Below, in pieces: positions 23,517-23,865 of a DNA stretch of 31,309 nucleotides (positions within the stretch are counted from its first letter, which is position 1; the number at the start of each line of letters is the position of its first letter). Source of the stretch: a virus (lineage: Duplodnaviria > Heunggongvirae > Uroviricota > Caudoviricetes). The stretch covers positions 1 to 31,309 of IMG/VR virus record IMGVR_UViG_2534681697_000027; one strand, 5' to 3'. The notes under the pieces were generated by a model, which saw nothing but the letters and a program-made list of their open reading frames with translations, ran no database searches and had not been told where the DNA came from. A program made the position numbers and the translations under genes.

Positions 23517-23591
23517 TGGAGCGGGCAGCGGGAATCGAACCCGCATCATCAGCTTGGAAGGCTGAGGTAATAGCCATTATACGATGCCCGC
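23517..23591 (-). tRNA. tRNA-Gly, anticodon UCC
   Basis: Manual cloverleaf fold of GCGGGCATCGTATAATGGCTATTACCTCAGCCTTCCAAGCTGATGATGCGGGTTCGATTCCCGCTGCCCGCTCCA; resembles host Gly2 tRNA. Confidence 0.75.
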
Positions 23592-23594
23592 ATA

Positions 23595-23670
23595 TGGTGC
23601 CGACTACCGGAATCGAACTGGTGACCTACTGATTACAAGTCAGTTGCTCTGCCTGCTGAGCTAAGTCGGC
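23595..23670 (-). tRNA. tRNA-Thr, anticodon UGU
   Basis: Manual fold; anticodon loop CUUGUAA; one A-C mismatch in the T stem; encoded CCA. Confidence 0.65.
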
Positions 23671-23672
23671 GC

Positions 23673-23749
23673 TGGCCCACCACCGAGGACTCGAACCTCG
23701 CACCGTCAACTTAGAAGGTTGATGCTCTATCCGGATGAGCTAGTGGTGG
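23673..23749 (-). tRNA. tRNA-Arg, anticodon UCU
   Basis: Manual fold; acceptor CCACCAC/GTGGTGG; anticodon loop CUUCUAA; T loop TTCGAGT; encoded CCA. Confidence 0.65.
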
Positions 23750-23750
23750 T

Positions 23751-23827
23751 TGGTGGCCCTTGCTGGACTTGAACCAGCGACCTGGCGATTATGAGTCGCT
23801 CGCTCTGACCAACTGAGCTAAAGGGCC
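23751..23827 (-). tRNA. tRNA-Ile2-like, anticodon CAU (lysidine type; anticodon alone would score as Met)
   Basis: Manual fold of GGCCCTTTAGCTCAGTTGGTCAGAGCGAGCGACTCATAATCGCCAGGTCGCTGGTTCAAGTCCAGCAAGGGCCACCA; backbone resembles host ileX. Confidence 0.65.
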
Positions 23828-23836
23828 GGAGGCAGA

Positions 23837-23865
23837 ATAATAACCATATGTCATCACATCTGCAA
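23837..23865 (-). promoter_or_regulatory. Putative sigma70 promoter for the tRNA cluster
   Basis: TTGCAG-17 nt-TATTAT on the minus strand, -10 ending about 9 nt upstream of the first tRNA. Confidence 0.35.

Follow-up and report, generated by a model that had tools for sequence, protein, structure and literature searches.

Why should a temperate phage keep four transfer RNA (tRNA) genes, set almost end to end, between its late antiterminator and its lysis genes? The locus that raises this question occupies positions 23517-23865 of a 31,309-nucleotide (nt) stretch of Caudoviricetes DNA (IMG/VR record IMGVR_UViG_2534681697_000027), which we call the window. Here, genes for a CAU tRNA of the Ile2 type, tRNA-Arg(UCU), tRNA-Thr(UGU), and tRNA-Gly(UCC) stand behind a putative promoter, pT. 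On balance, we consider it probable that they form a compact, self-promoted operon that would raise the supply of four minor host tRNAs. Support for this reading comes from four cloverleaves with encoded CCA, the conservation of pT, bracketing terminators, tRNA identity elements, invariant gene spacing, and codon enrichment. In transcribed order, the parts of the cassette are:

23837-23865, minus strand: putative pT, sigma-70-type (-35 TTGCAG at 23865-23860, 17 nt, -10 TATTAT at 23842-23837)
23751-23827, minus strand: CAU tRNA, Ile2 type (ARAGORN; Rfam RF00005, 70.5 bits)
23673-23749, minus strand: tRNA-Arg(UCU), slot 2 (ARAGORN; Rfam RF00005, 56.4 bits)
23595-23670, minus strand: tRNA-Thr(UGU) (ARAGORN; Rfam RF00005, 69.8 bits)
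23517-23591, minus strand: tRNA-Gly(UCC) (ARAGORN; Rfam RF00005, 64.9 bits)

Are all four genuine tRNA genes? ARAGORN, run over the whole 31-kb window, called these four and no others, all on the minus strand. Their RF00005 cloverleaf scores of 56.4-70.5 bits (E-values 1e-9 to 1e-13) exceed the gathering score of 29, which served together with a 7-nt anticodon loop to define membership. CCA is encoded at the 3' end of every gene, and the spacers, in transcribed order, measure 1 nt (A), 2 nt (GC), and 3 nt (TAT), giving a four-gene span of 311 bp (23517-23827). A first-pass annotation, made from the letters of the window alone, had proposed exactly this: four minus-strand cloverleaves with these anticodons, which ARAGORN and Rfam RF00005 both uphold, in 311 bp with 1-3 nt spacers and an encoded CCA per gene, as can be read off the sequence. 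The cassette is real and was described accurately.

ARAGORN labels the CAU tRNA as Met. Is it a methionine tRNA? It is identical at 74/77 positions (96%) to ileZ of an Shiga toxin (Stx) 2a phage and at 69/77 to ileX, compared with 54/78 for metT. The positive determinants of the lysidine synthetase TilS are C4-G69 and C5-G68, and those of TmcA, the Met-specific acetyltransferase that forms N4-acetylcytidine (ac4C), are C27-G43, C30-G40, and G44 (PMC2500205). Both TilS pairs are present in the acceptor stem (GGCCCUU/AAGGGCC), while the TmcA determinants are replaced by A27/C43, G30-C40, and A44. Identical copies of the gene are annotated as tRNA-Ile by the NCBI pipeline. An elongator or initiator Met identity was rejected on these identity elements and on similarity. 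The evidence supports an ileZ-type Ile2, predicted to be a lysidine substrate, as the first-pass annotation had supposed.

The second gene, Arg(UCU), matches argN (UCG) of Stx phages at 62/77 positions, host argU at 58/79, and argO at 47/77. It has C1-G72, and its A20, C35, U36, and G73 fit the identity set of arginyl-tRNA synthetase. In an alignment of 13 distinct relatives of this slot-2 gene, 97.4% of cloverleaf cells were paired and compensatory changes occurred at 5 pairs; when the pairing partners were slid as a control, only 29-54% were paired. Pairing and compensation together indicate a lineage kept as a tRNA, and the alignments identify the gene as a phage-lineage relative of argN.

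The remaining two genes have a different history. Thr is identical to K-12 thrU at 74/76 positions, the only differences (U16C and U20C) lying in the D-loop; the anticodon arm (ACUGA-CUUGUAA-UCAGU) is that of thrU, and the whole gene is 100% identical to that of phage SerU-LTIIb. The earlier description of Thr as divergent was thus mistaken. That of Gly as host-like was right, since it matches K-12 glyT at 75/75 positions. Both have their counterparts in the E. coli operon thrU-tyrU-glyT-thrT(-tufB), and even the spacer fits: Thr-TAT-Gly can be tiled gaplessly from two host pieces, thrU with the T that follows it and glyT with the AT in front of it. Three matching spacer bases are expected by chance at about 1/64. 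Past these bases there is no host flank homology around Thr or Gly, the match ending at the gene borders; compared with the host operon, the cassette lacks tyrU and 206 nt, has no thrT, and stands behind another promoter. This arrangement suggests that host thrU-tyrU-glyT was captured and that a 206-nt deletion then removed tyrU and spacer. By sequence comparison, the cassette is a composite: its Ile2 and Arg genes belong to old phage lineages that Stx phages have too, and Thr and Gly are host-derived.

What drives its transcription? The -10 hexamer of pT ends 9 nt before G1 of Ile2. The match to consensus is by itself not significant, with 4 such sites in 2.2 kb against 2.2 +/- 1.4 in shuffled sequences; the promoter is credible because it is conserved. 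In an alignment of the window with an Stx2a phage and with four relatives (L001, the prophage of E. coli FDAARGOS_944 and the closest relative; L006; L007; L008), the hexamers are invariant while the 17-nt spacer varies. The hexamers persist across 18 distinct upstream variants among 82 complete cassettes, and their distance to the first tRNA is conserved before the ileZ-type gene in every relative examined, whereas everything upstream varies. Moreover, the 933W-type record OP797663 annotates a 29-nt element upstream of ileZ, with the same hexamers and spacing, as "pT; putative tRNA promoter". The TTGCAG-17-TATTAT promoter proposed in the first pass is thus the homolog of the annotated pT of 933W-type phages.

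We also asked whether pT could be the Q-dependent late promoter, and rejected this. In OP797663, pR' is a feature of its own, placed where Q ends, and terminators are marked both between it and pT and behind the last tRNA. The same order recurs in the window: a pR'-like promoter followed by a leader hairpin, a U-tract terminator, and then pT. The separate pR' and the better-placed pR'-like elements, with their leader hairpins and terminators, mark pT as the putative promoter of the cassette. The hairpins that bracket the cassette are:

23915-23945, minus strand: intrinsic terminator hairpin upstream of pT, GC stem and U7 (-18.5 kcal/mol, z = -4.55)
22877-22903, minus strand: terminator-like hairpin downstream, candidate end of the pT transcript (-18.6 kcal/mol, z = -3.94)

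The upstream hairpin is conserved in L008 and the Stx phage with compensatory stem changes, aligns in position with the isrK terminator found downstream of Q, and probably ends a short late-leader transcript, as a tR'-type terminator. As for an independent transcription unit of the kind expected of a moron, the upstream terminator is strong. Downstream, the nearest candidate (23239-23258) is weak, folding no better than shuffled sequences, and the strong one lies 614 nt away. At 100-200 nt past the last tRNA, a long near-perfect hairpin with a stem of ~30 bp occupies 23305-23412 (minus strand); the 231-nt stretch that contains it folds at z = -4.3, and its conservation extends to L001. When 22800-24100 was scanned permissively against Rfam, only noise came back, in the form of miRNA-like matches on this hairpin.

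How would such an operon act? Transcription would start from pT, a few bases ahead of Ile2, and, to judge from the geometry, Q-modified polymerase from the upstream late promoter would also read through the cassette after induction. RNase P would cut the ~320-nt precursor at the four 5' ends, leaving 1-3 extra 3' bases that exonucleases would trim back to the encoded CCA, as in the established processing of tightly spaced tRNA operons of E. coli. Host TilS would convert the CAU tRNA to its lysidine form, which would read AUA; Arg would read AGA (AGG weakly), Thr would read ACA and ACG, and Gly would read GGA and GGG. Four host tRNA species of low abundance would thereby gain gene dosage, and phage DNA replication would multiply it further. 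Laboratory rare-codon helper plasmids supply the same four species as argU, ileX, glyT, and thrU and relieve limitation at AGA, AUA, GGA, and ACA during expression of AT-rich foreign genes in E. coli; unlike the cassette, they are man-made, use host alleles throughout, and also carry leuW, proL, and others.

Are these codons in demand? We compared codon use in the core phage genes and in two AT-rich morons, trkG and an O-acetyltransferase gene, with a baseline of 110 long K-12 open reading frames (ORFs; 43,640 codons), ranking over-representation among the 61 codons:

AGG: core phage genes 3.3-fold (rank 1); morons 2.85-fold
AGA: core phage genes 2.3-fold (rank 2); morons 4.2-fold
AUA: core phage genes 1.8-fold (rank 5); morons 12-fold
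ACA: core phage genes 1.8-fold (rank 7); morons 4.1-fold
GGA: core phage genes 1.6-fold (rank 9); morons 3.0-fold

All five are among the nine most over-represented codons, and the chance that four random codons would all stand at rank 9 or better is 2.4e-4. The first-pass annotation had expected the cognate codons to be common in the AT-rich morons; enrichment is indeed strongest there, but the core phage genes are enriched too. The same pattern was obtained with a smaller baseline and in the L001 prophage. Since the latter has the same cassette without trkG, the cassette is not tied to these morons. In phage SfI, likewise, an ACA bias matches a Thr(UGU) tRNA encoded downstream of Q (PMC3636060).

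Several observations weigh against codon supply. UCA, CGA, and CCU are similarly enriched, yet have no phage tRNA, and weakly biased foreign DNA peaks at the rarest codons of its host, so enrichment of this kind is to be expected and is not a specific sign. Two members of the cassette contribute dosage only, and in a sister haplotype described below, slot 2 encodes a Lys(UUU) tRNA, which does not serve a rare codon. The same site holds an Asn(GUU) tRNA in other lambdoid phages, and codon bias offers no explanation for it (PMC3636060). Finally, an IS110-family insertion sequence (IS) ends 7 nt upstream of the holin start and cuts the lysis genes off from late transcription. The window prophage is probably lysis-defective, so a benefit in lytic growth may no longer apply to it. 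The codon test is consistent with codon supply and is not proof of it. Candidate selective reasons are codon supply for phage or moron genes, an advantage for the lysogen, and a partial evasion of tRNA nucleases.

How widespread is the cassette, and how constant? At least 80% of a 601-bp cassette query is present in ten complete E. coli genomes; because Gly is an exact copy of glyT, 5425/5426 E. coli genomes match part of the query. A search with the Ile2/slot-2 junction recovered more than 119 viral contigs and 9 chromosomal loci; of the latter, one Shigella flexneri genome and one E. coli genome hold four each, and Yokenella holds the ninth. ARAGORN typing of 128 junction loci gave Ile2-Arg(UCU)-Thr-Gly in 40 and the sister haplotype, Ile2-'Lys(UUU)'-Thr-Gly, in 47; in 23 only the CAU tRNA was callable, and a few had aberrant slot-2 anticodon arms, labeled Ser(UGA), Leu(UAA), or undetermined. 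Complete cassettes keep the 1/2/3-nt spacing without exception (82/82), and 36 of them have the haplotype of the window. The two common haplotypes pair Arg-UCU with a Thr bearing C16 and C20, and Lys-UUU with a host-type Thr.

By its sequence, slot 2 is an anticodon switch on one scaffold. The same scaffold (acceptor CCRCCAC, C1-G72) carries UCU, UUU, or UCG anticodons in different phages (loci L013, L016, L021, L007, L008, and others). The UCU and UUU forms share the anticodon stem UCAAC/GUUGA, and the UCG (argN) form has CCAGC or UCAGC. The 'Lys(UUU)' form has C16, an unusual C33, discriminator U73, and U36AAGUU41 in place of U36AAUCA41, the site cut by the nuclease AriB.

Could the cassette be a mere passenger? 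It might be a relic lodged in a recombination-prone lambdoid junction, at most a patch of homology for module exchange and of no present benefit. Homology between the haplotypes, ~94% over 329 bp, stops at pT and one base past the Gly CCA, and the flanks switch abruptly at both borders. Such an ending of homology at the cassette borders also marks the cassette as a discrete, mobile module. Decayed versions exist as well. In the 23 viral loci with only the CAU tRNA (e.g., L022, L028, and L029), slot 2 is ~66 nt long, its anticodon arm deleted and its D-arm joined to its T-arm, and no Thr or Gly follows. In L006 (E. coli RMDEC364, 3002-3072) and five similar genomes, annotation calls the fourth gene tRNA-Val, but its sequence derives from glyT: the anticodon reads UAC for UCC, A38 has become G, the 3' strand of the acceptor stem has lost 1 nt, and CCA is missing. 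This 'Val' gene is probably decaying, a sign that selection on the host-identical Gly slot may be weak. Against a relic stand the four intact tRNA genes of the window (4/4), the compensatory changes that keep cloverleaf pairs, the conservation of the pT hexamers against a variable spacer, and the spacing shared by all 82 complete cassettes. We consider a present lack of benefit very improbable.

Might the tRNAs instead answer a defense system? The cassette, or at least Thr(UGU), could replace or buffer host tRNA cut by Toprim nucleases of competing elements, such as AriB of PARIS or Old of P2. P2 Old, the effector of P2-lambda interference, kills through cleavage of its primary target, host tRNA-Thr(UGU), in the anticodon stem, at paired CNG motifs; resistance maps to the anticodon arm, resistant phage Thr tRNAs having altered CNG motifs or a shortened anticodon stem, and extra host tRNA-ThrU gives little or no protection (PMC12445682). 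AriB cuts within U36AAUCA41, between C40 and A41, and U39A abolishes cleavage; U16C in tRNA-Lys, at a D-loop position contacted by the second AriB monomer, significantly impairs it, and the resistant T5 tRNA has C16 (PMC12409363).

How does the Thr of the window compare with these determinants? Like the Lys, Thr, and Asn tRNAs of T5 that counter PARIS and the phage Thr(UGU) tRNAs that counter P2 Old, it has the anticodon of a main target. It also has C16, as does the resistant T5 tRNA; the effect of U16C on AriB was shown for tRNA-Lys rather than for Thr. Unlike those of the virulent phages, however, it has a host-type anticodon arm and belongs to a temperate phage with four tRNAs only. Its CNG motifs are both unaltered, its anticodon stem is of full length, and it keeps A37 and the AriB site UAAUCA, including U39 and A41, so it should remain cleavable. 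With the arm identical to that of the host, only U16C speaks for counter-defense, and this weakly, as few tRNA positions vary more freely than 16 and 20. An added tRNA-ThrU hardly protects against P2 Old (PMC12445682). Gly is an exact host copy, and slot 2 of the window holds Arg rather than the resistant-looking Lys allele. We know of no nuclease that targets Ile2 or Arg(UCU), and this too counts against counter-defense. The paired CNG motif (C28-A-G30, C40-U-G42) and A37 typical of P2 Old substrates occur in Gly, as in glyT; the motif is thus found in both host-derived tRNAs of the cassette and in neither Ile2 nor Arg.

The wider family offers counter-defense more. The Lys(UUU) of the sister haplotype, with its C16, its C33, and UAAGUU for UAAUCA, looks resistant. 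Lambdoid phages of the SfI/P21 type carry Asn(GUU) and Thr(UGU) tRNAs at the same site, and in SfI both are altered at nuclease-determinant positions. Jointly, the lambdoid tRNAs downstream of Q cover the whole AriB target set of Thr(UGU), Lys(UUU), and Asn(GUU). Even so, we think it unlikely that counter-defense explains the cassette of the window. Equally doubtful is a broader version, in which the lambdoid tRNA slot downstream of Q would be partly an anti-defense locus against P2 Old and PARIS, the Thr of the window a minimal, partly AriB-resistant form, and the Arg/Lys alternation in slot 2 an allelic switch between codon supply and counter-defense.

How does the cassette sit in its genome? 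Its neighbors, and the cargo genes of the prophage, are:

24862-25416, minus strand: Q-like late antiterminator gene (Pfam DUF1133, E = 4e-106; weak Phage_antitermQ match)
24035-24865, minus strand: P1 immI-like/Gifsy-1 IsrK-like module, between Q and the tRNAs
21391-22842, opposite orientation to the holin: IS110-family element (DEDD transposase; Pfam and alignment)
21168-21383, minus strand: holin (Pfam Phage_holin_2_1)
20671-21168, minus strand: lysozyme (Pfam Phage_lysozyme)
20210-20686, minus strand: Rz (Pfam Phage_lysis)
18615-20090: trkG (TrkH family), AT-rich cargo (GC 0.38), just beyond Rz
28369-29472: O-acetyltransferase (phrog_3333), AT-rich cargo (GC 0.32), beside the integrase (30173-31309)

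The Q-like gene also matches PHROG 753 (phrog_753), 'anti-termination protein Q-like', with E = 6e-80. The cassette lies downstream of it and upstream of the lysis genes (20210-21383), on the same strand, an arrangement shared with L001, L005, L006, L007, and L008. The first-pass placement between Q and the lysis genes thus gave the right interval, but direct flanking has been lost through insertions on both sides. In L001, the order is Q, ~190 nt, four tRNAs, ~680 nt, and holin; relative to it, the window has gained an isrK/C4/anti-repressor block upstream of the cassette and the IS110-family element downstream.

The upstream block is the immI-like/isrK module, in place of which L001 has ~100 bp. 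It contains isrK (77.8 bits), c4 a1/b1 targets, the C4 antisense RNA (68.7 bits), and an ORF6N anti-repressor gene (phrog_2379). A promoter-like site at 24865-24836 overlaps the stop codon of the Q-like gene, and a weak second isrK match lies at 23917-23990. The module is bracketed by two positionally equivalent promoter-hairpin-terminator units, and isrK therefore appears to be, in these phages, the short late-leader RNA that runs from pR' to tR'. Downstream, ~670 nt without credible genes separate Gly from the IS110-family element; the two ORFs there have no PHROG match and are unannotated in relatives, and we have accordingly treated the stretch as non-coding. A second IS110-family copy at 11656-13112 is identical over at least the first 300 nt. 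Another IS pair is represented by ORFs at ~7723-8316 and 27082-27933. The best chromosomal match to the junction of IS and tRNAs is in Shigella flexneri, at 99.5%, and the O-acetyltransferase resembles O-antigen-modifying genes of Shigella serotype-converting phages. Compared with complete E. coli genomes, the whole window is covered to no more than 49% by any record.

This setting bears on a further explanation, lysogenic conversion. With a pT that does not depend on the late promoter, expression would occur in the lysogen, where the cassette might improve translation of acquired AT-rich genes of the host (for example, trkG and the O-acetyltransferase, or virulence-plasmid genes in Shigella) rather than serve phage growth. 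A separate promoter insulated by terminators would suit this role, as would the four cassette copies on one Shigella flexneri chromosome and the use of AUA and AGA in the morons at 12 and 4 times the host level. The cassette is also intact in a prophage that carries IS insertions, one of which isolates the lysis genes. However, its flanks are likewise 98-99% identical to those of relatives, so the intactness of the tRNAs says nothing about selection after decay, and the same cassette occurs in the inducible phages PhiR47_1 and vB_EcoM-606R7. We judge benefit to the lysogen alone distinctly improbable.

To which known systems does the proposed operon belong? Lambdoid phages have a family of such tRNA cassettes between Q and the lysis genes, and the cassette of the window is one of its members; its genes are already called by annotation pipelines, and its promoter is already annotated in Stx phages. 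The founding example of the family is pT-ileZ-argN-argO of Stx phage 933W. The link to 933W comes from GenBank annotation and from what Plunkett and colleagues in 1999 and Schmidt and colleagues in 1997 are said to have reported. Both cassettes fill the slot after Q, pR', and terminators and before the late or lysis genes, and both have the TTGCAG-17-TATTAT promoter, with an orthologous first gene (ileZ, 74/77) and a homologous second one (argN lineage, C1-G72, 62/77). They differ in that slot 2 reads CGA and CGG through UCG in the 933W type and AGA through UCU in the window, where Thr(UGU) and Gly(UCC) replace argO (UCU). In addition, the spacers measure 7-13 nt in the 933W type and 1-3 nt in the window, and no toxin genes follow the cassette of the window. 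With argN (UCG) and argO (UCU) not forming its second and third genes, slot 2 being UCU and argO absent, the cassette of the window is a compositional variant rather than the 933W cassette itself.

A second branch comprises P21, SfI, Sf6, and ST64T, which carry Asn(GUU)/Thr(UGU) tRNA genes downstream of Q (PMC3636060). Like the window, these lambdoid or P22-like phages of Shigella, E. coli, and Salmonella have tRNA genes between Q and lysis, Thr(UGU) included. The Thr of SfI, in contrast to the near-exact host copy of the window, matches thrU at only 54/78 positions and differs from it in the anticodon stem; SfI is without Ile2, Arg, and Gly, and the window is without an Asn tRNA.

Why, then, do phages carry tRNAs? 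The cassette amounts to a natural experiment on this question, as a single frame holds two haplotypes in which exact host copies stand beside diverged tRNAs of phage lineage. The two haplotypes would allow codon supply to be tested against escape from tRNA nucleases in temperate phages of E. coli and Shigella.

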